DNA from: Candidatus Accumulibacter necessarius | Lineage (GTDB): Bacteria; Pseudomonadota; Gammaproteobacteria; Burkholderiales; Rhodocyclaceae | Assembly: GCA_017302435.1 (NCBI GenBank) | Contig: JAFLDL010000017.1 | Coordinates: 14,492 to 78,491 of the forward strand | Reading direction: 5' to 3' | Length of the DNA: 64,000 nt | Part shown: positions 47,010 through 61,342 of the stretch, in pieces | Position numbering within the stretch: the first letter of the stretch is position 1 | Layout: each line of letters begins with the position of its first letter | Notes under the pieces: generated by a model | What the model was told of the DNA's origin: nothing | The model's database searches: none | Seen by the model: only the letters and a program-made list of their open reading frames with translations | Program-made: the position numbers and the translations under genes

Positions 47010-47039
47010 TGGCCCCTGCCCTCATTCAGTGTCCAACGC

Positions 47040-47076
47040 AAAATGGCTCGCAGCAGGCCAAGCGGCCTGCTGCGAG
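47040..47076 (-). terminator. rho-independent terminator candidate after the DUF47-like gene
   Basis: CTCGCAGCAGGCC-AAGC-GGCCTGCTGCGAG is a perfect 13-bp stem. On the minus strand it is followed by CCATTTTG. It lies ~200 nt downstream of the stop at 47274. Confidence 0.45.
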
Positions 47077-47273
47077 CACCCGTGATACGAGCCAAAAGCG
47101 ACCCCGGCCGGCTGCGTGACCCGGGCCGTGTGCGACGCCAGAACGATTGGCTTGTTTTGCAAGAGAAGGCCGAAGCCGGGCAGGTAACAGCCCGGCGACC
47201 TGCGAAAGCGAAGCGAAGCAGCGCGCGAACGCGGCGGGACAAGACGAGCCGGTGGCGCGGGTCTGGCGAACAG

Positions 47274-47990
47274 TCAGTGCGAATCTCTTGCGCGAACCGC
47301 GGGCAGGCCTGCTGTGCGCCTGGCCCGAAGTTCAAGGTCGATGCCTTCGGCCTGGTCGGCGACGCGGTCGATTTCTTCGACGAGTTGCGCGAGCGACAGC
47401 TGCAACTTGAGGTCCAGGCTTTGATCGGCGAAAAGCTTTTTGAGAAGTTGCATCGACAGACGATCCGACTGGTTCTCGTACCAGCTCACGCTCCGCTCTC
47501 CGTCGATCGACGACGCTTGTTCCCAGCACAGCAGGGATGGACGATAGCTCTCGACCAGCGCATCCACGGCCGCGCAGACCTCGTCGGTCAGTTCCTGCAC
47601 GTCCGGAACCAGGGACGCTGGAACGCTGCGGCCGGGACCGGAAAAGCCCGACTCAATGGCGAAACCGGTGATCTGCCGCCGCATGTCCTTGAGCAAACGA
47701 CTGACGCCGGTCGTGGGGTCGACCATCGCCAGAACCACATCGCCGAGTACCGAGCCCGGACGCACCCCGGTCTCGAGCTTCTGCTGCAACTCGTCGAGCG
47801 TGCGCATGTGCTCTGCGACCCGTTTCGCCTGGCGCCAGCATCCCCCGTCAGGCCCGGTTTGCAGATAAACGTCGACCGCTTCCCTGAAAATCGCCGTCGC
47901 ACCCGCTATTGCATCCAGATAGCTGTCGAGATCGCCTTCGATCGACCGCGAAATTACGGGCCTCTCTGCCGCTTGCACTTGAGTTTCCAC
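47274..47990 (-). CDS. divergent DUF47/TIGR00153-like (PhoU-like helical bundle) protein
   Basis: The C-terminal SWYENQSDRLSMQLLKKLFADQSLDLKLQLSLAQLVEEIDRVADQAEGIDLEL follows the DUF47 pattern (E-EAD-x-L...LF...iDxiAD-AEd). The N-terminal part aligns loosely. Start set at GTG 47990 (GGAG 8 nt upstream). The track start ATG 48080 adds 30 residues of implausible sequence. Confidence 0.55.
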   Translation of the reverse strand: METQVQAAERPVISRSIEGDLDSYLDAIAGATAIFREAVDVYLQTGPDGGCWRQAKRVAEHMRTLDELQQKLETGVRPGSVLGDVVLAMVDPTTGVSRLLKDMRRQITGFAIESGFSGPGRSVPASLVPDVQELTDEVCAAVDALVESYRPSLLCWEQASSIDGERSVSWYENQSDRLSMQLLKKLFADQSLDLKLQLSLAQLVEEIDRVADQAEGIDLELRARRTAGLPAVRARDSH

Positions 47991-48092
47991 AATGACTTCT
48001 CCTGCATGAAGTAAAAAACTGGAGCCCGACCCGCCTGGAGAACGCTTCCCCAAGCCGCCAGCGCTTCTTGAAATTCGCATAAATACCTTATA

Positions 48093-48857
48093 TCAACTAA
48101 ATAGCAATTGCCGTGACAGACTGCGCACGACTGCTCCGGCAGACCGGTCAAGCAAACTGGCAGAGAGTTGCCGTGACCAGCCCTTGAGAATGCTTCCTGC
48201 GTCAGCAAGCTCGTGAGCGATGCCGGCGAGAACGCCATGCAGCTCGTACAGCCACAGCGCGTGGCCCGGAGAGCCTGAGCTCGTCTCCGGACGCCTGGTG
48301 GATTGCGCCAGTTCCTGCCTCTGGTCGATCCCCTGAAAGGCCAGGCTGCGATAGCTTCCCAAGGCGTCCTTGCTACCAATTGCGGCATCAGCAGAGCACT
48401 CGGCAGCCGGCGAGCCGTCGGCCAGCTGGGCATAGCCATGCTGCAGGCTCTCGATCGCGTGTTGAATGATCAGTATCATCTGCGAGGCCACCTCATCGCG
48501 AGTTGACCGCAGGTGATCGAGACTTCGGGCGATCTGGAACAGGCCCGCTGCGGACCGATCCAGGGCATTCATGGTCCAGTCAATCTCGTCAAGTCGGGCA
48601 TGCCGGTCATGCACCGAACTGACGGCCGCCTGATTGCGCCGCTGCAGTTCCTCACGACGCTGTTCCAGGTCGAGCAGGCACAGCGAATGGGTGGACTCCC
48701 TGCCCTGCAGCACCTCGCCGACGATCCGGGACAGATTCACCACCAATTTCGCTTGCCGATTGATCATCGCGAAGAAATCAGGCATTTCGGCAGCGCGCAC
48801 TGGCGGGCGGACTCTACGCACAACTTGCGCAAGGGCGACGTTTGTCACGGCATTCAC
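48093..48857 (-). CDS. hypothetical protein (predicted helical/coiled-coil), first gene of a sigma-54 transcribed pair
   Basis: The ORF frame stays open to 49067, but the -24/-12 promoter at 48952-48968 lies inside that extension, and the extension is low-GC and W/C-rich. The real start must therefore be downstream of ~48940. Candidates are GTG 48857, ATG 48785 and ATG 48767. No recognisable motif. Confidence 0.5.
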   Translation of the reverse strand: MNAVTNVALAQVVRRVRPPVRAAEMPDFFAMINRQAKLVVNLSRIVGEVLQGRESTHSLCLLDLEQRREELQRRNQAAVSSVHDRHARLDEIDWTMNALDRSAAGLFQIARSLDHLRSTRDEVASQMILIIQHAIESLQHGYAQLADGSPAAECSADAAIGSKDALGSYRSLAFQGIDQRQELAQSTRRPETSSGSPGHALWLYELHGVLAGIAHELADAGSILKGWSRQLSASLLDRSAGAVVRSLSRQLLFS

Positions 48858-48951
48858 CTGTCTTCTACTTCTATCGGGCCTGGTGGAATAGTCATCTGCA
48901 AGAAGCTCTTCGATCTGCAAGGACGATCGATCTGTGCTTGCATACTTAATC

Positions 48952-48968
48952 AAGCACAAAGCGTGCCA
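48952..48968 (-). promoter_or_regulatory. sigma-54 (-24/-12) promoter P1
   Basis: The minus strand reads TGGCACGctttGTGCTT, with GG/GC spacing exactly as in TGGCACG-N4-TTGCW. Confidence 0.65.
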
Positions 48969-49045
48969 CATCCAACGAAAATCGATTTGTCGCATAAAAG
49001 CAATGCCCTGGAAGAGAACAGTAGGCGAAGGAGCGACCTTGCGGG

Positions 49046-49165
49046 GGTGCAACAAAACGCACTTCAATACCGACCGTAATCCTGGAAGGTGATCAAATTC
49101 GGCATTGAATACAGCCGGTTAGGCGACCTGTTCAGGAGCGGCGTCAGACCGCGAAGCGTTACACC
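49046..49165 (-). promoter_or_regulatory. paired inverted GTTRCACC boxes (candidate enhancer/UAS) for P1
   Basis: On the plus strand, GGTGCAAC sits at 49046-49053 (extended GGGTGCAACAAAACG), 78 nt from P1. GTTACACC sits at 49158-49165, 112 nt further. The same layout occurs at P3 and P4. Confidence 0.5.
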
Positions 49166-49307
49166 ATGATGCCGGCGAGAGGTATGGCGCGCGCCCACAC
49201 CGAGGCAAACCAGAGCCGCCCGGCAAACAAGAAACGCGTTGAGACGACCGCAGCAGAGTGGCGGCAAGCGCGGGCCGACATCAGCGGTAAAGAATTCGTG
49301 CAGCAGC

Positions 49308-49346
49308 AAAAACGCCGTTATTCCCGCGCCAGCGGGAATAACGGCG
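49308..49346 (-). terminator. rho-independent terminator after the CHAD gene
   Basis: The minus strand reads CGCCGTTATTCCCGC-TGGC-GCGGGAATAACGGCG followed by TTTTTGCTG. The stem is 15 bp and the element lies ~95 nt downstream of the stop at 49439. Confidence 0.65.
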
Positions 49347-49438
49347 AGCCTGCAGTGGCAAACAGCGTCGCTACTTCTCAGGCGGTCACCTGACAAGAGC
49401 AAGACCGACCCGTCTCGCCTGCCTGGCATAGGCAGAAT

Positions 49439-50494
49439 TCATTGCGTCCGCCACGGCGCCGCCTGCAGGTGGAAGTCGCCCAGCAAGGCTTCGAGTTCCG
49501 GTAGCAGCCTTTCGGTCTGCCCTGCCAACCAACAGCACAAGGCTTCCCCCTGCGAGCCGGGAAGCGCTTCGGCGGTCAGTTCGCCGGCCACTGCCAGGTC
49601 GTTCAAGCGGCCGAGCAGTTCCTGCAGGCCACTCGCCGACTGGTGGTAGTTGCGCAGCGAATCGCCGGGAAAGAGCGGCGCGAAGAATTCGAGCGCGTAA
49701 CGTAGCCGCTTGTAGGCCACACGCAGACGGTGGCGGGCCGGCGCATCGCCGCCCGCAGCCTCTGCGGCCAGCTGGCCGACCTGCGCGGCGCGTTTGTCGA
49801 GACAACGTGGGGCAAAGGCTTCGAGCCGACGCGCCTTGCCCTCGGGAAGCGCCAGTACGGCAGCCGCGAACTCGAGCAGCAGGCGAGAATAGTCGACCGA
49901 CTCCAGCGCAACGCGTGCCGCCTCACGATTGATCACGCAGCGTTTTCGCGCGTACTGCGACAGACGGATAATCTCGTCGCCCTCCGGGAACGCCAGGAGG
50001 ATGGACGGCAAGGTTTCGGCAAGAAACACATCCCAGTTACGCGTCTCACCGAGTTGCCTGGCCAGTGCCTGCCAGAGCGGGTCGAAGCTGGCGACGAACT
50101 CCTGTGGCAAGCTCGGCTTCCACACGCGGATCGCCGAGCGCAGACGGCGAATCGCCACCCTCGCCTGATGCACGAACTCCGGATTGTCGCTCTCGCACAG
50201 GCCTTGCTCGTTACTCTGCAGGTGCGTGAGACAGGCCAGCGCAATGGTGCGGAACCCGGCAACGGCCGTCATGCCGCCGTTTGTCTCGATCGGCAGCGCC
50301 TTGACCGGCTGCAGGGATTCGTCCAGCCGCACACGATGGCCACATGGAAGCTTGCCGGCAGCTTCCGCATGCGGCGACAAACCGGCCGGCAGTTCCGCGA
50401 CGGCGGAAAACCGATCGGCAAGCAAGGGATGCTTCAGCCGCCGGCTGGCAACTCCAGGCGTTGGCGAAAGGTTGAGTTCGGTTTCAATACCCAT
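49439..50494 (-). CDS. CHAD domain protein (polyphosphate-granule-associated domain family)
   Basis: Repeated basic helices typical of CHAD: VHQARVAIRRLRSAIRVWK, RHRLRVAYKRLRYALEFF. 351 aa. RBS AGGAG 9 nt before ATG 50494. Confidence 0.85.
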   Translation of the reverse strand: MGIETELNLSPTPGVASRRLKHPLLADRFSAVAELPAGLSPHAEAAGKLPCGHRVRLDESLQPVKALPIETNGGMTAVAGFRTIALACLTHLQSNEQGLCESDNPEFVHQARVAIRRLRSAIRVWKPSLPQEFVASFDPLWQALARQLGETRNWDVFLAETLPSILLAFPEGDEIIRLSQYARKRCVINREAARVALESVDYSRLLLEFAAAVLALPEGKARRLEAFAPRCLDKRAAQVGQLAAEAAGGDAPARHRLRVAYKRLRYALEFFAPLFPGDSLRNYHQSASGLQELLGRLNDLAVAGELTAEALPGSQGEALCCWLAGQTERLLPELEALLGDFHLQAAPWRTQ

Positions 50495-50601
50495 CTGACA
50501 AGCTCCTGAGAATTGGACTGGAAACCAGTCACGTCAACATGCCCCTGACCAGACTGGTGGCAATCCAGGATCGGTCGGAGGAGTCCTTACATTCTCATAT
50601 C

Positions 50602-50618
50602 AAGCACAAGTCATGCCA
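50602..50618 (-). promoter_or_regulatory. sigma-54 (-24/-12) promoter P3 upstream of the CHAD gene
   Basis: The minus strand reads TGGCATGacttGTGCTT, ~110 nt upstream of ATG 50494, with an AT-rich tract just upstream. Confidence 0.65.
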
Positions 50619-50694
50619 GGCATATTTCCGATGGATAATCATTTAAATTCAATCTGATAGCGCCGCGTGTCGCAGTGCTGTGGCGCTCGCGGCG

Positions 50695-50814
50695 GGTGTA
50701 ACAAAACGAATCGGGATTGCCCCCCCAGGGCCCGTCCCGACTGCGGATTACGTCTGAGAAACAGTGTCTTACGGCCGGCTGCCGGGACGCTGCACGGCGC
50801 AGAAACGTTACACC
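50695..50814 (-). promoter_or_regulatory. paired inverted GTTRCACC boxes (candidate UAS) for P3
   Basis: On the plus strand, GGTGTAAC sits at 50695-50702 (extended GGGTGTAACAAAACG), 77 nt from P3. GTTACACC sits at 50807-50814, 112 nt further. Confidence 0.5.
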
Positions 50815-50995
50815 TGCGAGCGGTATGATCAGCAGTCTGATGGTTGCCGGCAGTCAGTCGCAGAAGCGCATACCCAGCCGCCCCGCCAGCCGCGCCTGCC
50901 CCACACCGCCTGCGTGCCGTGCCTTCCCAGGCATCCGATGCAGACTCCCATGGTCACCATCCACGCGCCTGACGGCCAATGAGATGTACTGCCCC

Positions 50996-51032
50996 AAGAA
51001 AAACGGGGAAGGACCTTGCCGGTCGCCTCCCC
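50996..51032 (-). terminator. terminator candidate after the DUF47 gene
   Basis: The minus strand reads GGGGAGGcgaccggcaaggtCCTTCCCC followed by GTTTTTCTT, 26 nt downstream of the stop at 51058. The stem is imperfect (one G-U pair). Confidence 0.4.
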
Positions 51033-51057
51033 GAATTCGAGCCGTCTGCTGCGGACT

Positions 51058-51714
51058 TCAGCAGAGCTTGACGACGATGTCCAGCAGCGTGCTGTTGCAG
51101 ACGTTCAAGCGGGAGCCGGCGCTCAGAAGCTGGTTGTAGATTTCCTTGCGGCGGAAGATATTCTGGAAATCGGTATCGTTGAACAGTTCTGCGAGGGCGC
51201 GTCGGTGGCATCGCGTCAGGTTGCGCACCGCCTTGTCCGACTTCTCGGCGTCGGCGCGGCCAAGCTTCGGATCGGTCCCCAGACGGCCATAACCCGCGGC
51301 CACTGCCTCCGCCCCGTCCTTCAGGTAGACCGCCATCTCCAGGCAATACTTGTCCGCCTTCAACGCCAGGACATTGGCGTCCATCTCGGCGACCACCGTC
51401 TTGCAACTGTTGATGATCTCGTCGAGGTTGATGATTGCCCGGTGCAGGTCTTCACGGTCGATCGGCGTCGAGAACGCTTCGTTGAGCAGCGTCAGGTTGC
51501 GGACCTTGAGCCGATCCCCCTCGTGCTCGGCGTCGATCACCCGCTTGGCGACGTCCGGGCTGCCGGAGCCCATGTAGTCGACCAGTAGCGCGGCACTGAG
51601 ACCTACCTGCGCGCTCTGTTCGGCGAGCAGGGCAAAAAAGTTCGGCACTTTCGGAAAGACGCGGTGCAGAATCCGGCGAGTGAAGGAGGTTGACGCAGTG
51701 CTAGCGGTCGACAT
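51058..51714 (-). CDS. DUF47-family protein (PhoU-like putative phosphate transport regulator)
   Basis: FFALLAEQSAQVGLSAALLVDYM...VIDAEHEGDRLKVRNLTLLNEAFSTPIDREDLHRAIINLDEIINSCK is the canonical DUF47 pattern. It starts 3 nt after the PiT gene. Confidence 0.85.
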   Translation of the reverse strand: MSTASTASTSFTRRILHRVFPKVPNFFALLAEQSAQVGLSAALLVDYMGSGSPDVAKRVIDAEHEGDRLKVRNLTLLNEAFSTPIDREDLHRAIINLDEIINSCKTVVAEMDANVLALKADKYCLEMAVYLKDGAEAVAAGYGRLGTDPKLGRADAEKSDKAVRNLTRCHRRALAELFNDTDFQNIFRRKEIYNQLLSAGSRLNVCNSTLLDIVVKLC

Positions 51715-51716
51715 GT

Positions 51717-52757
51717 TTAGGCCTTTCCGAGAAAGAGATTAACGAGAGCGAAAGTCTGAATGGCAACCAGTGCCGAACCCGGAATCGTGATCACCCAGGT
51801 GATGGCAATGTCCTTGGCCTTCTTCCAGCGAACGGCCTTCGGCCGCTCCGAAGACCCGATGCCCATGATCGACGTGCCAACCACGTGTGTGGTCGATACC
51901 GGAGCACCGATCGCCGATGCGGTCATGATCACCAGCGCCGAGGTCAGCTGCGAACTCAGGGCGTGAATGGGGCGTACGCGGTAGATGGCGAAACCGAGCG
52001 TGCGGACGATCCGCCAGCCGCCGGAGAGGATGCCAAGCGTAATCGCAATGGCGCAGGCCAGCATCACCCAGAAGGGAACTTCAAAGGTTGGGATGAAACC
52101 ACCCAGCAGCAGGGCCAGCGTCAGCATACCCATGCTCTTCTGCGCGTCGTTGGCGCCATGCGAGAAGGCCAAACCGGCCGCCGTGACAAACTGGGCGTAG
52201 CGCAGCCCGGTATTGGCCGACGGCTTGGCAGCGAACAAGGCGATATTCATCAGGCGCAAGATCAGAAAACCGACCCAGAACCCGAGCAATGGGGAGACGA
52301 TCAGGCTGGCCAGCACCTTCACGATTCCGGTCACCTGGCCGTGCATCAATTGCGAGAAGCCCCAGACCACGTTGTCCAGGCCAGCCGAGACGACGACGGC
52401 GCCGATCAGCCCGCCGACCAGTGCGTGCGAGGAAGACGACGGAATGCCGAAATACCAGGTGGCCAGATTCCACACGATGGCACCCACCAGGCCACTGATC
52501 AGGATCGCCAGCGAAAGAACAGCCTGGACATCGCCCAGGGTGACGAACTTGCCGATGGTATTGGCCACCGCCGTCCCGCCGAGCAAGGGGCCGAGGAACT
52601 CGAAGGTACCGACGATGATCACCGCCTGCACGGGCGTCATCGCGCGCGAAGCGATAATCGTCGCCACGATGTTGGCGGCATCATGGAAGCCGTTGGTATA
52701 GTCAAAAAATAGAACGATGGCGACGGTCAAGATCGTCAGAATCAATAGTGTGCTCAT
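51717..52757 (-). CDS. pit: inorganic phosphate transporter, PiT family
   Basis: MSTLLILTILTVAIVLFFDYTNGFHDAANIVATIIASRAM... and a second GANDAQKSMG repeat: the two PiT signature motifs (GxxDxxN). Confidence 0.9.
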   Translation of the reverse strand: MSTLLILTILTVAIVLFFDYTNGFHDAANIVATIIASRAMTPVQAVIIVGTFEFLGPLLGGTAVANTIGKFVTLGDVQAVLSLAILISGLVGAIVWNLATWYFGIPSSSSHALVGGLIGAVVVSAGLDNVVWGFSQLMHGQVTGIVKVLASLIVSPLLGFWVGFLILRLMNIALFAAKPSANTGLRYAQFVTAAGLAFSHGANDAQKSMGMLTLALLLGGFIPTFEVPFWVMLACAIAITLGILSGGWRIVRTLGFAIYRVRPIHALSSQLTSALVIMTASAIGAPVSTTHVVGTSIMGIGSSERPKAVRWKKAKDIAITWVITIPGSALVAIQTFALVNLFLGKA

Positions 52758-53180
52758 GAAGCGGCCCTGTGGTTGTGGTCGTGTGTTGAAGCGCGACTCT
52801 CAAGAAGGTCCAGGTGCGGCGAAACTCGCCTGCCGGGATCCGACTGGATGGTTGCCTGCATGTTCTTGCGACTCCTGTTGTTCCTCCTTGTCAAGGCCTG
52901 CCCCGGCAGGCCCAGTCCATCGACGAGCGGCTGCGCGCAATCGACCGTGCGTCCCTTTGCGGCGCTCGACCGTCGTTCCCGCAGTGGCCCTTACCGATCA
53001 GATAATGACGCGAGGCCTGCCAGCCGTCGGCACTCGGTAGCCGACAGAAATTCCGTTCACCGTTTGCAGGCACATGACATCCCCCCAGATATCGGACTTA
53101 CCCATGTTTGAATTGGCGCGCCCAAGCCATCGCCGATGGCCATCGGCCAAAGCGCCAGGTCACGGGCATCCTATGGAAGA

Positions 53181-53197
53181 AAGCATCATTCATGCCA
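53181..53197 (-). promoter_or_regulatory. sigma-54 (-24/-12) promoter P4 upstream of pit
   Basis: The minus strand reads TGGCATGaatgATGCTT with correct GG/GC spacing. It lies ~425 nt upstream of the pit ATG (52757), which implies a long leader. Confidence 0.6.
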
Positions 53198-53274
53198 GAA
53201 TTGACAGACGATGCACAGGCTCCGGAAAGCAGGCGCCTGGCGCCCATCACCACCACCAGGGCAGCCGCCAATGG

Positions 53275-53391
53275 GGTGTAACAGAATGTATGGCCCTTCA
53301 CCCGCATGTCTTGTCCGTAGACATGCAGCCCTTTTATATCAGTGAATTACTTTCTTGTATGCGGCCGACCGGAATGTCAACATGTAACACC
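53275..53391 (-). promoter_or_regulatory. paired inverted GTTRCACC boxes (candidate UAS) for P4
   Basis: On the plus strand, GGTGTAAC sits at 53275-53282 (extended GGGTGTAACAGAATG), 78 nt from P4. GTAACACC sits at 53384-53391 (one mismatch), 109 nt further and ~40 nt from the stop of the activator gene. Confidence 0.45.
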
Positions 53392-53432
53392 GGGGTTGGC
53401 CGATCGACCTGGCAAACCGGGCGGGCGCAGAC

Positions 53433-54863
53433 TCAGGACTCCGGCTGCATCGCCCGCCGCGCCAGGCGCCTGTTGAGTGCCGGCCGTGACAGTCCGAGCA
53501 TCGTCGCGGCAACGCCCTGGTTCCCCTTGGCGCGTTTCAGCGCCTCCCTGACCATTGCCTCCTCGACCTCGTCGAGCGTGGGGAAGCGCCCTGGAATCAC
53601 GATCGGCAGGCCGTCGGACGGTTCGGCCGCGTGCTCCTCGGCACCCGTCTTCTGCTGTTTCTGGATAGCCTGGCGGAAGCTGTCCATCGCCAGCACTGAC
53701 CCCCCGCGATGCAGCGCCATGGCGTTGAAGACCATCGCCCGCAGTTCGCGGACGTTGCCGGGGAAATGATAGTTGGAGAGCAGCGTGACGAGCTCGTTCG
53801 ACGGCTCTGGCGCGGGCTTGTTGATCGCTGCCGCCGCCTCGTCAAGGAAGTGCTGCAACAGCAGCGGGATGTCTTCCTTGTGCTGGCGCAGCGGCGGCAC
53901 TTCGACCTGATGCACGGACAGGCGAAAGAAAAGGTCCGAGCGAAAATGGTTCTGACGCATCATCTGGGCGAGATTGCAGTTGGTCGCGCAAACGACGCGC
54001 GCATCACTCGGGCGAGCGACATCCGATCCGAGCGGAAAGTACATGTGCTCCTGGAGCAGGCGCAGCAGTTTGACCTGCGACGCCATCGACAGATCGCCGA
54101 TCTCGTCCAGGAACAGCGTGCCGCCGGCGGCCTGGGCGATCAGACCGGCACGCGACTGGTCGGCACCGGTGAAGGCACCTTTCTTGTGGCCGAACAAGGT
54201 GTCGGAAAAGAGCGTGTCATCAAGGCCGGCGACATTGACCTGCACGAACTGTCCGCTCAGGCCGCTGAGCTTGTGCAGCGCGTGCGCGAACATTTCCTTG
54301 CCGGCGCCGGTCTCGCCGGAGATCAGCACCGGTTCGGCGGAAACGGCAACCGCTTCGAGATACTGGAAAAGTGCTCTCATCTTGCGGCTGTTGGTGACGA
54401 TGCCGGCAAAGGCCTCGTTGTTCTGCAGACAATCCGACAGCAGATAGCGCTTCAGCACCCCCATCTGCCGCCGCAACGAGTGCACCTCGAGGGCATGGCG
54501 AACACTGGCCACCAGACGGCTTTCCTCGACCGGCTTGACCAGATAGTCGAAAGCGCCTTCCTTCATGCTGCGGACGGCGGTTTCCACATCGAGTGCTGCG
54601 GTCATGACGATCACCGGCACTTCCGGGTAGAGGTGAACGATATCCGGCAACAGCTTGTTGCCGGTGATATGCGGCATGAAGAGATCGAGCAGGACCGCAC
54701 TGGCCGGCTGCCGCTCGAGTGCGGGCAGCAGTTCCCGGCTGTCGCTCACCATCTCGACCTTCGCCACACCGGCACTGTGCAGCACTGCTGCGGTGGCGTG
54801 CAGGACCGACTCCTCGTCATCGACCAGGAAAACAGGCAGGCTGGCAAAGGGTTTTTCTTTCAT
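53433..54863 (-). CDS. sigma-54-dependent response regulator (NtrC family: receiver + AAA+ + HTH)
   Basis: Receiver (VFLVDDEESV...AVLLDLFMPHITG). AAA+ Walker A GETGAGKE, the sigma-54 contact loop GAFTGA (KKGAFTGADQ), GTLFLDEIGDL. C-terminal HTH GNQGVAATMLGLSRPALNRRL. Confidence 0.9.
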   Translation of the reverse strand: MKEKPFASLPVFLVDDEESVLHATAAVLHSAGVAKVEMVSDSRELLPALERQPASAVLLDLFMPHITGNKLLPDIVHLYPEVPVIVMTAALDVETAVRSMKEGAFDYLVKPVEESRLVASVRHALEVHSLRRQMGVLKRYLLSDCLQNNEAFAGIVTNSRKMRALFQYLEAVAVSAEPVLISGETGAGKEMFAHALHKLSGLSGQFVQVNVAGLDDTLFSDTLFGHKKGAFTGADQSRAGLIAQAAGGTLFLDEIGDLSMASQVKLLRLLQEHMYFPLGSDVARPSDARVVCATNCNLAQMMRQNHFRSDLFFRLSVHQVEVPPLRQHKEDIPLLLQHFLDEAAAAINKPAPEPSNELVTLLSNYHFPGNVRELRAMVFNAMALHRGGSVLAMDSFRQAIQKQQKTGAEEHAAEPSDGLPIVIPGRFPTLDEVEEAMVREALKRAKGNQGVAATMLGLSRPALNRRLARRAMQPES

Positions 54864-57446
54864 TCACTCCTCCATGGCGATCGGCAGATCGATACTGACC
54901 GTCGTGCCGCAGTCACTGTTCGGCTCGAAGCGCAATGCCCCGCCGTGTTTTTCGACGATCGACGACGAGATGGAAAGGCCCAGCCCGGTACCGCCGCTTT
55001 CGGCCTTCGTCGTGAAGAAGGGTTCGCCGATCTGCGCCATCACGTCCTCGGCAATTCCTTTTCCCTGATCCACGACTTCGACGATGATCCGGTTGCTGGC
55101 ACTGTCCAGCCTCGCTGAAACCTTGACCGACCGGCTGCGCTCGGGCAGCGACTCCAGGGCATTGACGATCACGTTGATGAACACCTGTTCCAGCTGCTGC
55201 ACATTCCCCCTCACCGTCGGCAGCACCTCGGGCAGGTCCAGGACAAAGCGATCGGTGTGCTTGCGAATGCGGGTTTCAAGCAGCGTTGCCACGGCCTGCA
55301 GCACTTTCCCGATATCTGCCAGCTCGTCCATGTGCCCCCGGTCCTGTTTGCCGAGATGCTTCAGGTTATCGACGATCTTCTGAATGCGTTTGCCGTTCTG
55401 GCCAATGTCGTTCATGCCGCGCGAGATGACCTCCCGCGCCTGCGCGAAGCTCAGGCCGGCAAGCAGGAACGATCCCTGCTCCTGCTCATACTCACCGAGA
55501 ATCGGCAACGCATCCTGCCAGATCCGGGCCAGCAGCGAAGCATTCGCCAGAATGGCGTGATTGGGATTGTTGATTTCGTGCGCGATGCCGGCCGAAAGCA
55601 CGCCCAGTGAGGCCAGGCGCGAGCTGCGGATAGCCTGCCATTGCAGCTTGCGGTTCTCGGTGATGTCGGTGACCACCACCATGGCCGCCATCACCGCCGC
55701 CTCCGAACTGATCGGCACCATCCGGACTTCCCACCAGGTGGCATCAGTCGACCGGTACTGGAAATGCTCGATTCGCCCACTTGAGAAGACATGTCGGAGC
55801 CTCTGCAGGTATCCCGACCGCACGTCGGGCGGCAGAATCAGTTCCGATCGCTTCTCGCCGGTGCCACCCGCCGGATACGGCAGGGGCCGGTTGGTAAACA
55901 GGATGTTGGCCTCACCATCAACCGTAAAGATCAGGTCGGGGGAGTGGTTGAACAGCGTACGCAACTTCGCCTCGGAGTCGCGCAAGGCGTCTTCCGCCAG
56001 CTTGTGCTCGGTAATGTCCTCCAGAAAGCCGACGATGCGACTCAGCTCGCCGCCCGTTTCGCGCACCGGAAATCCGCAGACACGCAGCCAGCGCCGGCCA
56101 CGGTCGCCACTCAACACCGGCAGGACGACGGTGAAACGGCCGCCCTCAACGCGCAGCTGGCTGATCGCCTCGACCAGCGTACGCCGGTCGTCGGCTTCGA
56201 AGACATCGAGCATCAGTGCCGGCGCGGGACTGTTGAGCCTGGCCTCACGCCCGGCAATCTGCCGGAACGCGGGGCCGATGTACTCGAGCCGCGACGCGTC
56301 GGCGTTGATCGCCCAGAACACGACATCGACCGTTTCCGCCAACTGGCGAAACAGTTCCTCGCGCTCGTAGATCGTCTGTGTCAACTGTATTCGATTGTCC
56401 AGTTCGCGCCGACTGCGTACCAGGTAGAAGCTGAGCAGGGCGGTAAACAGGATGCCGCCGAGCAGCACCGACCAATGCGCCTTGGTAAACGCTTCTGCAC
56501 TACGGAAGGTATGGGTGGCAACGCAAGTGACCGTCCATGTACGGTCGCCGACGGGAATGCTGACCACCATCCGCGGCTGATCCTCGTCCCCTGCCGGCAT
56601 CAGACCGCCGGCGGCGGCGGCGCGCGGCTCGAGGCGACTGGCGTAGAAGTGGAGAAACTGCGCATCAGCACCCGCCGAGTCGTCACGCACCAGCACCTCG
56701 ACACCGCGCGGCTCGAGCAGGCTGATGGCGACGTGAACCAGTTTCTCGATGTCGTAAACGCCGATCACGAAGCCAAGGGGATCGGGCCGTTTGCCGGGCG
56801 CGGCCGCGGAAACAGCACCACGCGCGGCACCCGGCGCATAGACCGGCAGCGCCGCGTAGATGACGGACACCGCTTCCCCGCCCGCCCGCGCAAGTTCCAT
56901 TCGTCCACTGACCGCGACATTGCCGGTCTCTCGCGCCCGCTGGAAGAGTGCCGCCAGTTCCCCGGTCGCGTTCAGATCGACGCCCTGCGCACTTCCCGGG
57001 CCAGCGCGAGACGCGGAAAGCAGTACCGGCACGCGCCAGTCGCCCGCACCCAACCCTTGCTCAGCCCGCGTGGCAGCACTCGCTGCCGGCGGGCGGCCGG
57101 GTGCCGTCCCGGGCAGCGCCTGCTGCGGGGAGGTCAGCAGCGGGGCCCACAACAGACTGTCGATGTACGGTCGGCGTTTGAGCACCGATTCGGTGAAAAC
57201 CAGGAAATCCTGCTCGTCGATTCCCTGCGCCGCATGGAACAGCCCCCGGATTTCCAGCAGCGCATCCAGGCCCTGGTCAACCACCGCCCGCAGGGACTGG
57301 ATGCGGTCCCCTGCGGCCCACTCGAACTCCTTGAGGTGGCTGGTCTGCAGTTCCTGCCGCACATTCCATGACGAGAGGCAGGTCAGCAGCACTCCACCGA
57401 TCGCCACTGCATAGGCGGCGGCATACTTTCGCAGATTGTCAAACAT
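54864..57446 (-). CDS. sensor histidine kinase (CHASE-like periplasmic domain, PAS domains, HisKA/HATPase)
   Basis: The N-terminal TM is followed by KEFEWAAGDRIQSLRAVVDQGLDALLEIRGLF...YIDSLLWAP (CHASE-like). H-box GIAHEINNPNHAIL; G-boxes DQGKGI, GTGLGLSISSSIVE. Its stop directly abuts the regulator start. Confidence 0.85.
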   Translation of the reverse strand: MFDNLRKYAAAYAVAIGGVLLTCLSSWNVRQELQTSHLKEFEWAAGDRIQSLRAVVDQGLDALLEIRGLFHAAQGIDEQDFLVFTESVLKRRPYIDSLLWAPLLTSPQQALPGTAPGRPPAASAATRAEQGLGAGDWRVPVLLSASRAGPGSAQGVDLNATGELAALFQRARETGNVAVSGRMELARAGGEAVSVIYAALPVYAPGAARGAVSAAAPGKRPDPLGFVIGVYDIEKLVHVAISLLEPRGVEVLVRDDSAGADAQFLHFYASRLEPRAAAAGGLMPAGDEDQPRMVVSIPVGDRTWTVTCVATHTFRSAEAFTKAHWSVLLGGILFTALLSFYLVRSRRELDNRIQLTQTIYEREELFRQLAETVDVVFWAINADASRLEYIGPAFRQIAGREARLNSPAPALMLDVFEADDRRTLVEAISQLRVEGGRFTVVLPVLSGDRGRRWLRVCGFPVRETGGELSRIVGFLEDITEHKLAEDALRDSEAKLRTLFNHSPDLIFTVDGEANILFTNRPLPYPAGGTGEKRSELILPPDVRSGYLQRLRHVFSSGRIEHFQYRSTDATWWEVRMVPISSEAAVMAAMVVVTDITENRKLQWQAIRSSRLASLGVLSAGIAHEINNPNHAILANASLLARIWQDALPILGEYEQEQGSFLLAGLSFAQAREVISRGMNDIGQNGKRIQKIVDNLKHLGKQDRGHMDELADIGKVLQAVATLLETRIRKHTDRFVLDLPEVLPTVRGNVQQLEQVFINVIVNALESLPERSRSVKVSARLDSASNRIIVEVVDQGKGIAEDVMAQIGEPFFTTKAESGGTGLGLSISSSIVEKHGGALRFEPNSDCGTTVSIDLPIAMEE

Positions 57447-57722
57447 GGGCGGCCATTAGAAGGTTGCTGTAGAGGGCTTCACCGGCGCAACTGCCTCAAT
57501 CGCCACTACCCGATCCGAACGAGCTTAGCAGAAACGGCCGCCGCCATGGGCCAAAAGTGGCAGGACTGGAGATAGCCGGTTCGGGTCAGGATCCGCAGCC
57601 ACCCTGGCCCACACCATGCCGCAGTTTGCGCTGCCGGTGTTCATCGTCATGGCTCGGCTCTCCGGCAGCAACACGCTCGGCGAAAAGCTGAGCTGAGCGG
57701 CTTCCCCTTCGGCCTTTGCCGT

Positions 57723-60700
57723 TCAGACAGGCGCTGTGCGATCGGGCGCCGTACGCGGCAACGTCAGGGTGAAGGTGGCGCCGTGCCCGGGAGAACTCTC
57801 GACCCCGATGGTCCCGCCCAGCACGCCGGTGACCAGATTGTACGCAATGTAAAGCCCCAGCCCGCTGCCGCCCTGCCCCAGACGGCTGGTGAAAAACGGT
57901 TCGAAAAGGCGATGAAGCGTCGCCGTCGGGATGCCCACCCCGTTGTCCACACAGCGCAGGACCACCTGTGTTTCGCCAACGGCCTGCGCCTGCAGCTCGA
58001 TGCAACCCTGCTCGATACCAACGAAGCCGTGCGTCAGGGAGTTGCCGACCAGATTGGTGATGACCTGTTCGAGCGGCCCGGGGTAACTGTCCATTTCCAG
58101 CCCGGCGGGAATATCGAGTTCGATCCGGTGCTGCGTTCGTTTGAACGTCAGGCGCAGCGTGACGAGCATTTCCTCGACCGTCTGGCGCAGGTCAAACGAG
58201 CGACGGCGAGCGCTGCTCTGGTCGACCGCCACCTGCTTGAAGTGGCCTACCAAATCAGCGGCGCGGGCGCTGTTGCGCTCCAGCAGCTCGACCGCCTCGC
58301 GACCGCGGTTGAGAAATCCGTCCATCTGCGAACGCCGCAGTTTGCCCGCTTCGACCGCACCGGCGAACTCGCGGAACTGCTCGCTGAGCAGGCTGGCAAC
58401 AATGCGCGTATTGCCCAGTGGCGTATTCAGCTCGTGTGCCACGCCGGCGACCAGATTACCCAGTGCGGCCAGCTTTTCCGCCTGGACAAGTTGCATCATC
58501 GCCTGCCGCAACTCGGCAGTCCGCTCGCTCACCATTTCCTCCAGGCGTTCGCGGTGGCGCTCGAGTTCCTCCTCGGCGCGCTTGCGCTCGGTAACGTCCG
58601 AGCCGACGCTGAAGACTTCCACCACCCGGCCCCAGTCATCGAAAACCGCCTTGTTGGTCCATGAAACCCACACCCGCTCGCCCCCGCGACGCATGTTCTC
58701 GGTCACCTTGCGTTCAAACTCGTCGGGATCCAGATGGATCGTCTCCACCAGAGAAAGCAGATCGTTGCTCTGGCCTGCCATCGGCGGTTGGATGGTGCCG
58801 ACCACCTGCCGGCCCAGCAGTTCCTCCTCCGAATAGCCGAAGAACTTGAGGCCAAACTCGTTGATGAAGGTGATCACGCCCGCCGGGGTCCAGCGCAGGA
58901 TGATGCTGTTGGCGTTCTCTACGAGTTCGCGGTACTTGAGTTCGCTTTCGAGCAATGCCTGCTCGGCGCGCTTGCGTTCGGTAATGTCGTTGACCAGTAC
59001 GAGTTCTGCCGGCCGCCCCTCGAAGGAGAGGGGGTGCGAGATGATCTCCACGTCAACCAGGGCGCCATCTTTCCGGCGATGTCGCCAGAAGCCAGCGTAA
59101 TCGCCCCTCTCCTCCACGGCGACGATATCCTCGCTCAGGAGCGGGCTGTCTTCGTCCGGGCTGAGGTCCATGATGGTCATGTCCTGGAACTCACTGCGGG
59201 AAAACCCGTAGCTGGCCACGGCGGCATCATTGACCGTCAGGAATGCCCGGGTTTCCGCGTCCAGAACCCACATCGCATGTGGATTGCTGTCAAACAGCAG
59301 TCGGTAGCGCGCCTCGCTTTCCTGCAGTGCCCTGTCCGTCCGGCCGCGCTCGAGCCGCATCCGCAGCACCGAGATGCCGAAGGCCAGATCTTCGGCGAGT
59401 TCGCTCAACAGAGCGACCTCGTCGCCGTCGAAGGCGTCCGCTGCCGCGGCGTAAATGCTCAAGGCACCCAGCGTCTGTTCCCCGACGATCAGCGGCAAGG
59501 CACACAAGGCGGCATAGCCACGCTCGACGGCCTCGGTACGCCAGGGCGTGAAGCGCGGATCGGCAGCGACGTTCGGGATCACGCAGGGGCGGCCGGTACG
59601 AATCGCCGTCCCATTGGCGCCACGCCCACGCTCGGCCTCCGCCCAGGTGGTATTCAGGCCCTCCAGATAACCTGCTTCATGACCGGCGTGTGCCATCGGC
59701 CGCACCGTGCGCTGCTCATCGTGCTCGGCGTAACCGACCCAGGCCATCCGGTAGCCGCCGACCTCGACGACGATGCGGCAGATGGTGCGCAGCAACTCGC
59801 TCTCGTCGGTTGCGCGAATCAGCGCCTGGTTACACTCGCTGATCATCCGCAACTGGCGGTTGGCCCGGCGAAGCGCCTCCTCGGCGCAACTGCGTTCGGT
59901 GATGTCGACGGCGACACCGATCACCTTGAGCGAACCGTCAGCCGCCCGCACCGGATTGAAATAGGTGTCGAAGAAGGTGTCGCCGAAGCGGGAGACGAAC
60001 TGCAGCGCCTCGCCACCGAGCGCTCGCTGCGCCTGGGCAGCGATCTCCGGGTAGTCGCGATAGAGCGTGAACAGGGACTGGCCGACCGCCTCGCCGGGCG
60101 TCAGGCCGGCACTCGCCAGACCTTTGCCTTCGCTGAGTTCGAAAACCCCCTCCTGATCGAACTGAAAAATCATCACCGGCGCGTTGCTGATCAACGACCG
60201 GTAGCGCGCCTCGCTGGCCGCCAGGTCGCGCTCGCGCTGGCGAATGGCCAGCGACATGCGATCGAGATCGTCGGCCAGGCTGTCGAATTCCCTGATCTGC
60301 GACAGCGGCCAGGATTGATCATAGTTGCCCTCGGCAATGGCATGCGCTTGTGCCGCATAGCGGCCAATTCGCCGTGCGAAGCCACGCGCCAGCAGCAGGG
60401 TGGCGCTGGTCGCCAGGAGCAGCGCCACCAGCGCGCCGGCAGCGAGGACCCAAAAGATGGACTGAAACGGCTGCAGGGCGTCGCTGCGCGGCTGCGCGAC
60501 GAGCACCGTCCAGCCGAGCTGCGGCACGCTGACCAGCGTGGCGATGAACTTCTCGCCTTCCAGTTCGAGCTCGTGGCTGACGAAGCGCCCGCGCAAGGCA
60601 TCGCCGACGATCGGCAGATGACCGAGGTTGAGTTGCTGGCCGCCGAGGCGACTGTGCGAATCCGCGATGATCTGGCCCTGGCGATCGAGGATCATGGTCG

Positions 60701-61295
60701 ACATCCCCGCTTCGGCCGGCAGGTGACCGATGAACTCGGCGAGCCGGTCAATGGCGACTTCGCCGACCAGTACCTGATTGCCCACCGGCATCGCCAGACT
60801 GACCGTCAGCCGGCCGCTGACGGCGGAGAGAAAAACGTCCGACCACACCGGCGCCTGCCGCTGGCGCGCTTCGCGCAGAACAGCCCAGCGCGAGAGGTCG
60901 ACCGCCAGCAGGTCTTCCCGCAGGCGCCGCTGTCCCGGCGGCAGGCCAACCGCGTACACGGAGTCAGCCGCGTCCGCGACATAGATCGCCGCGAATACCT
61001 CGCCGGATCCCACGTGCGCATCGAGAATCGGTTCGAACCAGAACGACGCCGGCTGCAAACCCCGCTGCTGCAGATACTCGGCTACAGCCGACAACTCGCG
61101 CCCGGCACTGCGCAGGTGCACTTCGACCTGGCCGGAGATGGCGCGAGCCAGGGCCTGGTGACGGGTTTCGATCTCCGCCAGCACCTGCGGCAGCAGCACC
61201 CACAGGAGCAGCGCGGCAACCAGCAGCAACGGCAGCATGCCTGCCAGCAGGAAGCGCAGCGCCAGCCACGGTCGAAGGGGCTTTGCCCAGGACAT
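57723..61295 (-). CDS. large multi-domain sensor histidine kinase (Cache-like, HAMP, several PAS, GAF, HisKA/HATPase)
   Basis: 1190 aa. N-terminal TM, periplasmic Cache-like region, second TM. PAS-like repeats. GAF (ICRIVVEVGGYRMAWVGYAEHDEQ...GALSIYAAAADAFD). H-box GVAHELNTPLGN. DNGVGI, GSGLGLYIAYNLV. Confidence 0.85.
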   Translation of the reverse strand: MSWAKPLRPWLALRFLLAGMLPLLLVAALLLWVLLPQVLAEIETRHQALARAISGQVEVHLRSAGRELSAVAEYLQQRGLQPASFWFEPILDAHVGSGEVFAAIYVADAADSVYAVGLPPGQRRLREDLLAVDLSRWAVLREARQRQAPVWSDVFLSAVSGRLTVSLAMPVGNQVLVGEVAIDRLAEFIGHLPAEAGMSTMILDRQGQIIADSHSRLGGQQLNLGHLPIVGDALRGRFVSHELELEGEKFIATLVSVPQLGWTVLVAQPRSDALQPFQSIFWVLAAGALVALLLATSATLLLARGFARRIGRYAAQAHAIAEGNYDQSWPLSQIREFDSLADDLDRMSLAIRQRERDLAASEARYRSLISNAPVMIFQFDQEGVFELSEGKGLASAGLTPGEAVGQSLFTLYRDYPEIAAQAQRALGGEALQFVSRFGDTFFDTYFNPVRAADGSLKVIGVAVDITERSCAEEALRRANRQLRMISECNQALIRATDESELLRTICRIVVEVGGYRMAWVGYAEHDEQRTVRPMAHAGHEAGYLEGLNTTWAEAERGRGANGTAIRTGRPCVIPNVAADPRFTPWRTEAVERGYAALCALPLIVGEQTLGALSIYAAAADAFDGDEVALLSELAEDLAFGISVLRMRLERGRTDRALQESEARYRLLFDSNPHAMWVLDAETRAFLTVNDAAVASYGFSRSEFQDMTIMDLSPDEDSPLLSEDIVAVEERGDYAGFWRHRRKDGALVDVEIISHPLSFEGRPAELVLVNDITERKRAEQALLESELKYRELVENANSIILRWTPAGVITFINEFGLKFFGYSEEELLGRQVVGTIQPPMAGQSNDLLSLVETIHLDPDEFERKVTENMRRGGERVWVSWTNKAVFDDWGRVVEVFSVGSDVTERKRAEEELERHRERLEEMVSERTAELRQAMMQLVQAEKLAALGNLVAGVAHELNTPLGNTRIVASLLSEQFREFAGAVEAGKLRRSQMDGFLNRGREAVELLERNSARAADLVGHFKQVAVDQSSARRRSFDLRQTVEEMLVTLRLTFKRTQHRIELDIPAGLEMDSYPGPLEQVITNLVGNSLTHGFVGIEQGCIELQAQAVGETQVVLRCVDNGVGIPTATLHRLFEPFFTSRLGQGGSGLGLYIAYNLVTGVLGGTIGVESSPGHGATFTLTLPRTAPDRTAPV

Positions 61296-61342
61296 TGATT
61301 TACCGGACCATCACGAACGGTTCATAGGACGGGCGCCCCTGC

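Follow-up and report, generated by a model that had tools for sequence, protein, structure and literature searches.

A probable sigma-54-dependent two-component regulon for phosphate transport and polyphosphate-granule proteins in Candidatus Accumulibacter

Enhancer-dependent two-component systems of the NtrC family, such as NtrB-NtrC acting at glnAp2, DctB-DctD, ZraS-ZraR and AtoS-AtoC, pair a sensor kinase with a response regulator in which a receiver domain (REC), an AAA+ domain with a GAFTGA loop and a helix-turn-helix (HTH) domain of the HTH_8 family follow one another, and act on nitrogen, C4-dicarboxylate, zinc or acetoacetate genes. For this activator family, promoter opening by the ATPase through its GAFTGA loops is established, and the classical NtrC layout consists of adjacent dyads of the site TGCACC-N5-GGTGCA. 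Two-component control of phosphate transport genes, with PhoU-family proteins nearby, is known from PhoR-PhoB; PhoB is an OmpR-family regulator that works at sigma-70 promoters via Pho boxes and is induced by phosphate scarcity. A further two-component system of a polyphosphate-accumulating organism is PolS-PolR of Microlunatus phosphovorus, whose regulator is reported, on experimental grounds, to bind promoters of phosphate-transport and polyphosphate genes (PMC6754071). PolS-PolR is actinobacterial, belongs to a different sequence class and is not described there as a sigma-54 activator, whereas the circuit presented here is predicted from sequence. In Escherichia coli, RpoN affects polyphosphate accumulation (bioRxiv 10.1101/2020.03.11.988303, 10.1101/2021.10.15.464621), a sigma-54/polyphosphate link that is genetic, with an unexplained mechanism and without a dedicated activator, pit promoter or CHAD gene. 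Here we analyse a stretch of 64,000 nucleotides (nt) from Candidatus Accumulibacter necessarius (contig JAFLDL010000017.1; hereafter the window), in which three sigma-54-type promoters with a shared enhancer layout precede genes for a PiT-family phosphate transporter, a CHAD-domain protein and PhoU-like accessory proteins, downstream of genes for an NtrC-type activator and its probable sensor kinase. Judging from sequence comparison, it is highly probable that these genes constitute a dedicated two-component, sigma-54-dependent phosphate-handling regulon in Candidatus Accumulibacter.

Candidatus Accumulibacter is the main organism of enhanced biological phosphorus removal from wastewater, and the control of its phosphate uptake and release is an unsettled question. 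Xie et al. attribute its pit and phoU homologues to lateral acquisition, report hardly any transcription of phoR and phoB and invoke 'Pho dysregulation'; transcription of the phoU homologues was reported as high and not synchronous with that of pst (PMC11361876). No regulator of the pit cluster is named in PMC4796919 or PMC11361876, and the word 'sigma' is absent from the latter. The rpoN gene is present and steadily expressed in Accumulibacter, where it has been used as a constitutive reference in quantitative PCR (PMC6446978). As target families, the PiT-DUF47 pair and the CHAD or CYTH-CHAD proteins are known (PMC6537752; bioRxiv 10.1101/2024.05.14.594254), CHAD being a polyphosphate-binding module (PMC6537752) and DUF47/PhoU_div having been named Pit accessory protein (bioRxiv 10.1101/2024.05.14.594254). 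A preliminary sequence-only reading of the window had supposed that the circuit was not previously described, and our search of the literature on Accumulibacter, CHAD, polyphosphate or phosphate transport with sigma-54 agrees, having returned no description of it, nor of control of PiT-DUF47 or CHAD genes by a sigma-54 activator; the box 8-mers described below appeared in primers and unrelated sequences only. We therefore present a sigma-54/enhancer-binding-protein regulon for phosphate transport and polyphosphate-granule proteins as newly described, the general type of activator and promoter being known.

The window system shares with the NtrC-family systems named above the REC-AAA+(GAFTGA)-HTH_8 order, the kinase gene immediately upstream, a GG-N10-GC promoter and activator sites beyond -100 with, at the consensus level, a site resembling that of integration host factor (IHF) in between; its box, GGTGYA, resembles the NtrC half-site. 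It is unlike them in its CHASE-PAS sensor and in its phosphate transporter, PhoU-like and CHAD targets, and unlike the classical NtrC layout in that its sites lie ~111 bp apart and inverted, with a second IHF-like site midway. Similarly to PhoR-PhoB, it would place phosphate transport genes under two-component control, with PhoU-family proteins nearby. In contrast to the Pho regulon, however, the promoters are of the sigma-54 type, and no match to the Pho box CTGTCATAWAWCTGTCAY with up to 3 mismatches was found in the window, for which reason PhoB control of the window units was dropped. The orthologous genes of strain UW-1 are, moreover, expressed at high phosphate, opposite to pst (PMC4796919; PMC11361876). 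The genes of the proposed circuit are the following:

54864..57446, minus strand: CHASE-PAS-PAS-HisKA-HATPase sensor kinase, 860 amino acids (aa; Pfam)
53433..54863, minus strand: NtrC-type enhancer-binding response regulator, 476 aa, with REC, AAA+ with GAFTGA, and HTH_8 (Pfam)
51717..52757, minus strand: PiT-family low-affinity phosphate transporter, 346 aa (Pfam PHO4, E 2e-88)
51058..51714, minus strand: DUF47/PhoU_div protein, Pit accessory protein, 218 aa (Pfam PhoU_div, PF01865, E 2.5e-10)
49439..50494, minus strand: CHAD-domain protein, 351 aa (Pfam CHAD, PF05235, E 3e-52)
48093..48857, minus strand: divergent DUF47/PhoU_div paralogue, 254 aa, GTG start (hhalign; without Pfam hit)
47274..47990, minus strand: protein of predicted PhoU/DUF47 fold, 238 aa from a GTG at 47990 (longest open reading frame to 48080)

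Pfam upheld the earlier calls of PiT, DUF47, CHAD, the activator and two sensor kinases (CHASE/PAS and Cache/HAMP/PAS/GAF). The supposed novel gene pair of the third unit encodes two further PhoU-like accessory proteins, so that PhoU/DUF47-fold proteins, one of them by predicted fold, account for three of the five products under the three promoters, the others being the PiT and the CHAD protein.

Each of the three units is preceded by a -24/-12 element and two boxes, all of which, by direct reading of the sequence and by pattern search, lie where the sequence-only reading had placed them:

53384..53391, minus strand: distal box for the activator at the pit promoter (minus-strand sequence GGTGTTAC), ~-218 relative to the predicted start
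53275..53282, minus strand: proximal box for the activator at the pit promoter (minus-strand sequence GTTACACC; extended motif cATTCTGTTACACCCC)
53181..53197, minus strand: sigma-54 -24/-12 element of the pit unit (TGGCATGAATGATGCTT), predicted leader ~415 nt
50807..50814, minus strand: distal box of the CHAD promoter (GGTGTAAC)
50695..50702, minus strand: proximal box of the CHAD promoter (GTTACACC; extended motif CGTTTTGTTACACCC)
50602..50618, minus strand: sigma-54 -24/-12 element of the CHAD unit (TGGCATGACTTGTGCTT)
49158..49165, minus strand: distal box of the third promoter (GGTGTAAC)
49046..49053, minus strand: proximal box of the third promoter (GTTGCACC; extended motif GCGTTTTGTTGCACCCCC)
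48952..48968, minus strand: sigma-54 -24/-12 element of the third unit (TGGCACGCTTTGTGCTT)

The GG-N10-GC cores of the three promoters are close to the sigma-54 consensus TGGCAC-N5-TTGCW. The pattern TGGCAYG-N4-RTGCTT (TGGCAYGNNNNRTGCTT) has four matches in the window, at 48952-48968, 50602-50618, 53181-53197 and 14879-14895 on the minus strand, where 0.35 would be expected; in 100 shuffles, a count of four never occurred. For the boxes, the claim that they were unlikely to arise by chance was borne out in part. The five matches to GGTGTWAC (0.73 expected; 0/100 shuffles reach five) all fall within the three intergenic regions, and so do the five matches to GGTGYAAC, but the latter count lies within the shuffle range (2.9 expected; 13/100 shuffles reach five) and is by itself not significant, so that their placement is the telling point. 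The distance from the distal box (GGTGTWAC on the coding strand) to the proximal, inverted box (GTTRCACC) is 109, 112 and 112 nt. Measured between their starts, the proximal box and the GG of the -24 element are 86, 85 and 86 nt apart, in agreement with the 78, 77 and 78 nt first reported under a different counting convention; the distal and proximal boxes are thereby predicted at ~-218 and ~-107 from the start. The distal pit box, said to sit ~40 nt past the activator stop codon, lies 42 nt past it. Outside the boxes and promoters, the three upstream regions are essentially unalignable, which excludes a recent duplication of the promoter regions within the window.

We scanned the activator protein against one genome per species and examined the loci around its homologues for the module formed by the two boxes and the promoter. 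Homologues are present in ~20 Candidatus Accumulibacter genomes at 84-95% identity, as well as in Candidatus Dechloromonas phosphorivorans and Dechloromonas sp. SSD3; the next ones belong to Gammaproteobacteria (Chromatiaceae, sulfur-oxidising symbionts and activated-sludge bins; 58-64%) and are followed by more distant ones. In addition, we searched metagenome contigs from public sources with a stringent pattern of the full module, which yielded 62 stretches, at least 56 of which carry a recognised island gene directly after the module; the remaining few are too short or lack a recognised gene. One metagenome match (L132; labels of this form denote the loci and contigs compared) was discarded as a chance match inside a 1915-aa open reading frame of an unrelated organism. 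Collectively, ~20 Accumulibacter/Dechloromonas genomes, ~10 gammaproteobacterial genomes and 60 metagenome contigs provided 88 non-identical modules in which the boxes of orthologous intergenic regions are conserved in both sequence and spacing. The proximal box lies 85-88 nt from the GG in 79/88 modules (outliers: five at 95-99 and four at 79-84 nt) and the two boxes lie 108-112 nt apart in 85/88 (three outliers at 119-120 nt), most outliers thus being about one helical turn longer, as a face-of-helix constraint predicts. Furthermore, the GG and TGC are near-invariant, whereas positions between the motifs carry ~0 bits, indicating that the conservation stems from selection and not from shared ancestry.

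The comparison also refined the structure of the enhancer. The distal box had been described as the inverted copy of the proximal one, and the inverted orientation holds, but the distal box is better viewed as the stronger of the two halves of a dyad: gammaproteobacterial loci have this dyad intact at the distal site, as GGTGTAAC-N10(11)-GTTACACC, whereas in Accumulibacter the left half alone is strict (consensus GGTGTAACgtttcg.c.tt..g), so that the second half has probably decayed. At the proximal site, one inverted copy stands alone, flanked by T-rich sequence, gt.C.TTTTGTTaCACCCc; the possibility that each box is its own local palindrome was rejected, as the proximal box has no conserved partner within 20 bp. 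Conservation extends to two more patches, which match the IHF consensus in a single orientation (YAANNNNTTGATW; the reverse complement of WATCAANNNNTTR). Site 1, at -68/-67 from the proximal box, lies midway between the boxes and is followed by A-rich positions, and site 2, at +42..+44 from the proximal box, occupies the middle of the stretch from that box to the promoter, roughly -67 to -55 relative to the predicted start. At a threshold of at least 7/9 consensus positions, 53% and 68% of the modules, respectively, have these sites, against a background of ~1%. In the window, they are placed as follows:

53337..53349, minus strand: IHF-like site 1 of the pit promoter, midway between the boxes (TAATTCACTGATA, 8/9 consensus positions)
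53227..53239, minus strand: IHF-like site 2 of the pit promoter (CAGGCGCCTGCTT, 6/9, a weak match)
50759..50771, minus strand: IHF-like site 1 of the CHAD promoter (TAAGACACTGTTT, 7/9)
50647..50659, minus strand: IHF-like site 2 of the CHAD promoter (TATCAGATTGAAT, 7/9)
49109..49121, minus strand: IHF-like site 1 of the third promoter (TAACCGGCTGTAT, 6/9)
48998..49010, minus strand: IHF-like site 2 of the third promoter (CAGGGCATTGCTT, 7/9)

The modules are always oriented into the downstream gene, and in at least 75/88 cases that gene is a recognised member of the phosphate island. The first gene encodes CHAD or CYTH-CHAD in 32 of the 88 modules, PiT in 18, the DUF47 paralogue (corresponding to the window protein initially recorded as unknown) in 13, a DUF47-like protein followed by a long, 495-aa PiT in nine, SulP in three, DUF47 in two, an Na/Pi cotransporter or its small membrane partner in two, a TPR protein leading the kinase-activator operon in two and the kinase in one; the remaining six are at a locus edge or precede no recognised gene. 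In the gammaproteobacterial loci, the module is situated right after the activator gene and would drive genes for a ~100-aa membrane protein and an Na+/Pi cotransporter (PF02690), which in L024 is fused to a PhoU domain. The association of orthologous regulators and the same module with non-homologous phosphate transporters in two classes is the strongest argument for a phosphate regulon. The ~100-aa protein, which belongs to no Pfam family and has a hydrophobic stretch with a consensus around YLxFxAYQLMGxxGV, is encoded by the first gene after the module, ahead of the cotransporter gene (L020 11863-12171, L026 11768-12070, L024 5086-5484; also L025, L027, L031 and L034).

In Accumulibacter, the genes follow the order CHASE kinase, activator, [PiT-DUF47], [CHAD], [two small proteins], SulP, where each bracketed unit occurs in some species and not in others and the same module precedes these units everywhere. 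Units have been gained, lost or reordered among species; in L002, for instance, a PiT-DUF47 pair occurs twice and a CHAD gene is in inverted orientation. The activator of Candidatus Dechloromonas phosphorivorans (L008, L009) is 92% identical to the window protein, which is within the range among Accumulibacter species (84-95%), and no further Rhodocyclaceae are found among the best 80 species matches, hinting at a recent exchange of the island among phosphate-accumulating lineages.

Published expression data are available for strain UW-1 (CP001715.1), in which the CHASE kinase and activator genes are followed by those for Pit, PhoU_div and CHAD, an insertion sequence (IS), genes for a 258-aa and a 226-aa protein, and SulP. 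The window PiT falls into one 90% identity cluster with UW-1 Pit (ACV35381). The genes for Pit, CHAD and the 258-aa protein, at the positions of CAP2UW1_2085, 2087 and 2092, each follow a complete module, with the GG of the promoters at L146 9520, 12170 and 17640, equivalent to ~2349379, ~2352029 and ~2357499 in the genome. The gene order matches the published numbering, in which Oyserman et al. assigned Pit to CAP2UW1_2085, phoU-like genes to 2086 and 2093, and SulP to 2094 (PMC4796919). That study found the operons CAP2UW1_2085-2087 and 2092-2094 and the phoU-like gene CAP2UW1_3728 to be co-expressed in a 'high-phosphorus pattern' associated with high soluble phosphate, and a separate 'redox transition' pattern, which does not include them, was also defined (PMC4796919). 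The units with modules in UW-1 are hence the very units published as co-expressed (PMC4796919). The product of CAP2UW1_3728 is identical in sequence to a protein of an unlinked unit on contig L143, where a complete module precedes the genes for the DUF47 paralogue, the PhoU-fold protein and SulP with no activator or kinase gene within 9 kb, implying that the regulator must act in trans. The UW-1 IS element (L146 13905-16872), located between the CHAD gene and the third unit with a module, encodes an rve transposase, an AAA protein and a DUF6431 protein.

The window activator carries the domains and motifs of an NtrC-type response regulator, including the intact GAFTGA loop noted in the sequence-only reading. 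Its receiver domain (Response_reg, E 8e-24, residues 11-121) has the phospho-acceptor aspartate in LLDLFMP, its AAA+ domain (Sigma54_activat, E 3e-57) retains the Walker A and B motifs GETGAGKE and LFLDEIG alongside KKGAFTGA, and its C-terminal HTH_8 domain (E 1.2e-8, residues 429-469) contains the recognition helix SRPALNRRLAR. The protein reaches none of the NCBIfam equivalogs NtrC, AtoC, ZraR/HydG, GlrR, NtrX, LuxO and PgtA, scoring 340 bits against a cut-off of 714 for AtoC, 326 against 559 for NtrC and less for all others, so that automatic 'HydG' labels in public databases are unsupported. Two sensor kinases had been placed beside the activator, and both domain calls hold, but of the two the CHASE kinase alone is conserved as a partner. 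The stop codon of its gene adjoins the start codon of the activator gene, and it is kept alongside the activator at 63-86% identity in Accumulibacter and 40-44% in Gammaproteobacteria, making it the probable cognate kinase, whereas the Cache/GAF kinase is encoded upstream of the CHASE kinase in part of the Accumulibacter species, having been detected only in L002, L003, L006, L014, L015, L030 and L131.

Several lines of evidence suggest that this activator binds the boxes. Wherever the flanking sequence of an orthologous locus suffices, be it from Accumulibacter, Dechloromonas or Gammaproteobacteria, the module comes next after the activator gene. The HTH helix LG(L/I)SRPALNRRL is invariant at all activator loci with boxes, whereas activator homologues without boxes have SRQSLNRRL, SRQTLNYRL, SRRALNNRL and similar helices. 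In L031 and L034, the module appears to drive the kinase-activator operon itself. Control by the adjacent NtrC-type activator, as initially proposed, is therefore most likely, given that the module tracks the orthologous kinase-activator pair into another proteobacterial class, and comparative evidence likewise supports the three sigma-54 promoters with their shared enhancer layout and phosphate-related units.

Under this model, the CHASE-PAS kinase (54864-57446) would phosphorylate the receiver domain of the activator (53433-54863), whose Fis-type HTH, with the helix SRPALNRRLAR, would bind the GGTGTAAC motifs at two sites upstream of each target. Two IHF bends, one in the middle of each arm, would then fold the ~200-bp region such that the two inverted boxes present a single activator oligomer to the sigma-54 holoenzyme at TGGCAYG-N4-RTGCTT, a bending step that we deduce from the consensus matches and the conservation of helical phase, and ATP hydrolysis via the GAFTGA loops would open the promoter. 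The targets would comprise pit with its DUF47 accessory gene, the CHAD granule protein, the two proteins with a PhoU/DUF47 fold and, by read-through, probably SulP. Given that the UW-1 orthologues follow the 'high-phosphorus' pattern, the output would be low-affinity, high-capacity phosphate transport together with granule proteins, most likely induced at high external phosphate. The model thus offers a concrete candidate for the control of the pit cluster, in which one kinase and one sigma-54 activator would act through a defined motif at promoters of fixed geometry, and which is testable although Accumulibacter is uncultured. It would add phosphate and polyphosphate handling to the processes controlled by sigma-54, and the regular enhancer, with boxes 111 bp apart and an IHF-like site in the middle of each arm, appears well suited to studies of DNA looping.

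Some observations nevertheless weigh against the regulon as outlined. The lone proximal half-site and the half-degenerate distal dyad are both unusual for a dimeric HTH_8 protein, the assignment of the boxes to the activator follows from the co-occurrence of module and activator, and the IHF-like sites are consensus matches alone (6-8/9 in the window). The pit leader is ~415 nt long in the window, compared to ~80 nt in other species, including L014 and L015, and may contain an additional pit promoter. Magnetococcales activators in L044 and L046 share the recognition helix and have no module beside them, and in Magnetococcales L038 and L043, where an activator homologue (58% identity) is encoded beside PiT-DUF47, neither a GGTGTAAC module nor a clear sigma-54 promoter was found; we therefore do not extend the regulon to this group. 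L038 (11476-11540) and L043 (4903-4970) share a different conserved stretch (CCTGAAAAAAATTTTCAYCCCCC...GAATTCCACTTCCAGACCCGCCCC), which may be the control region of the Magnetococcales lineage. Finally, in the published data, 'high phosphate' is confounded with the anaerobic-to-aerobic transition (PMC11361876).

The last point bears on the most serious alternative, namely, that the sigma-54 regulon is real and its signal is not phosphate but redox or oxygen, the counter-cations (Mg2+, K+) released with phosphate, or another anion, the phosphate genes being one output of an anaerobic/aerobic switch. The two cytoplasmic PAS domains of the kinase and the inclusion of a SulP-family anion transporter with a cyclic-nucleotide-binding domain in the regulon would suit such a signal, as would the rise of pit in strain SCUT-2 at the anaerobic-to-aerobic transition, which coincides with the peak of external phosphate (PMC11361876). 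However, almost all targets in the two classes are phosphate transporters, from families unrelated to one another (short PiT, long PiT and Na/Pi-PhoU), their PhoU-like partners and CHAD proteins, and the UW-1 orthologues were grouped with soluble phosphate and not with 'redox transition' (PMC4796919). On balance, a signal other than phosphate seems doubtful to us, albeit with a real chance of being correct.

Another conceivable scenario is that a different protein binds the GGTGTAAC boxes, the true activator being encoded elsewhere and the neighbourhood being coincidental. The half-site arrangement, atypical for NtrC-family dimers, and the activators of L044 and L046, which have the same helix and no adjacent module, are compatible with this scenario, but it does not account for a module placed immediately 3' of the activator gene in Accumulibacter, Dechloromonas and ~10 gammaproteobacterial genomes despite differing targets, for a recognition helix that is invariant exactly where the boxes occur or for the module upstream of the kinase-activator operon in L031 and L034, and we consider it very improbable. 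That a promoter cassette, repeated or mobile, gave rise to the modules by copying, without shared regulation and with a similarity that is inherited rather than selected, is barely credible: units are gained, lost and reordered among species and an IS element lies inside the UW-1 cluster, but only the boxes, IHF-like sites and -24/-12 elements are conserved, with ~0 bits between them at preserved spacing, we noticed no terminal repeats in the sequences read, every module points into the gene that follows it and the UW-1 units are co-expressed.

The phosphate-handling regulon favoured here can be extended into a bolder proposal, in which the system is a phosphate-sufficiency sensor analogous to a sigma-54 version of PhoR-PhoB that, at high external phosphate, turns on low-affinity phosphate transport, PhoU-like modulators of the transporters and granule proteins, the cassette of sensor, activator and targets with modules was laterally gained from Gammaproteobacteria by the ancestor of Accumulibacter and the phosphate-accumulating Dechloromonas, and the split inverted-repeat enhancer is folded by IHF at its midpoint, allowing the two distant boxes to load a single activator oligomer. 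In this complete form the proposal is speculative and, in our estimate, unlikely; if true, the gain of the cassette from Gammaproteobacteria would have been a pivotal event in the evolution of polyphosphate cycling as a phenotype.

Two extra, highly divergent paralogues with the DUF47/PhoU fold appear to form a unit of their own in the window. The protein encoded at 48093-48857, for which no Pfam hit was obtained, aligns with DUF47 over 210 columns (hhalign probability 97.9%, E 5.6e-13) and has the N-terminal PDFF..Q motif of that family, so that this 'unknown' protein is, by sequence, a full-length divergent DUF47 paralogue. The protein encoded at 47274-47990 is below the Pfam cut-off (19.4 versus 24.4 bits), and its hhalign comparison with DUF47 was not significant (E 0.084). 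AlphaFold2 models it as a six-helix bundle (predicted local distance difference test, pLDDT, 76; predicted template-modelling score, pTM, 0.74), for which the best Foldseek matches, 2iiu, 2olt, 3l39, 1t8b and 1t72 (template-modelling scores 0.68/0.77), are crystal structures of PhoU-like and DUF47 proteins, pointing to a predicted PhoU/DUF47 fold. Most public gene calls give a product of 238 aa, making the GTG at 47990 the probable start. Its UW-1 homologues are the 226-aa product at the position of CAP2UW1_2093 and CAP2UW1_3728, and its family comprises 102 clusters from metagenome sources, the named members all being Accumulibacter or Dechloromonas.

The window CHAD protein (351 aa) lacks CYTH, whereas most of its orthologues are CYTH-CHAD proteins of ~490-507 aa, as in L001 (14293-15816, CYTH and CHAD). 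Its N-terminus, MGIETELNL, may be a remnant of the CYTH ExExK motif, and the short form apparently also occurs in L014, L015, L115 and L122.

The remaining features of the cluster in the window are the accessory kinase, the anion transporter and three candidate terminators:

57723..61295, minus strand: accessory sensor kinase, dCache-HAMP-PAS-GAF-PAS-PAS-HisKA-HATPase, 1190 aa (Pfam)
50996..51032, minus strand: hairpin and U-tract terminator after the pit-DUF47 unit (-28.4 kcal/mol, z -2.85)
49313..49346, minus strand: strong hairpin terminator after the CHAD gene (-34.9 kcal/mol, z -6.1)
47046..47077, minus strand: 14-bp hairpin with a weak U tail (CAUUUUGCGU) in the gap between the third unit and sulP (fold z -4.2)
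44799..47009, minus strand: SulP-STAS-cNMP-binding anion transporter, 736 aa (Pfam)

All three hairpins, which had been put forward as terminator candidates, fold strongly (z about -2.9, -6.1 and -4.2), and the one at 47046..47077 may be merely a partial terminator before sulP. A SulP gene is directly downstream of a module in L075, L102, L103, L110, L136 and L140; because SulP is module-driven in these other species, the window SulP (44799..47009) is probably a member of the regulon, reached by read-through from the third unit. It is followed by a universal stress protein gene (44061-44786, minus strand), and the SulP-Usp pairing recurs at L143 and L145.

In the pit leader (52758-53170, minus strand), the final ~40 nt before the ATG form a conserved CA-rich stretch (CAACNCACGACNACAACCACAGGGCCGCTTC-ATG) without a classical Shine-Dalgarno sequence, and a conserved small hairpin is located further upstream; the leader could be a translational control element. 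An Rfam search of 46900-53500 at the E-value threshold returned no match, indicating that the long leader contains no known riboswitch or small RNA. A sigma-70 promoter scan of 44500-62000 found none against 2.8 expected and was uninformative. The pair of genes for a DUF47-like protein and a long PiT is module-driven in L011, L013, L018, L071 and L075, and at L143 (15510-16147) it lacks the module and has a sigma-70-like TTGACA...TAAACT instead, apparently reflecting a swap of promoter type between species. The fourth TGGCAYG-N4-RTGCTT site of the window (TGGCATGCAATGTGCTT, 14879-14895, minus strand) is ~120 nt upstream of a gene (13770-14759, minus strand) for a secreted protein with a PEP-CTERM anchor motif, and FeeM-like N-acyl amino acid synthase genes (15040-17578) lie just upstream of the site. 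Since it is not accompanied by GGTGTAAC boxes, this site probably belongs to another sigma-54 regulon, perhaps of the PEP-CTERM/exosortase type.

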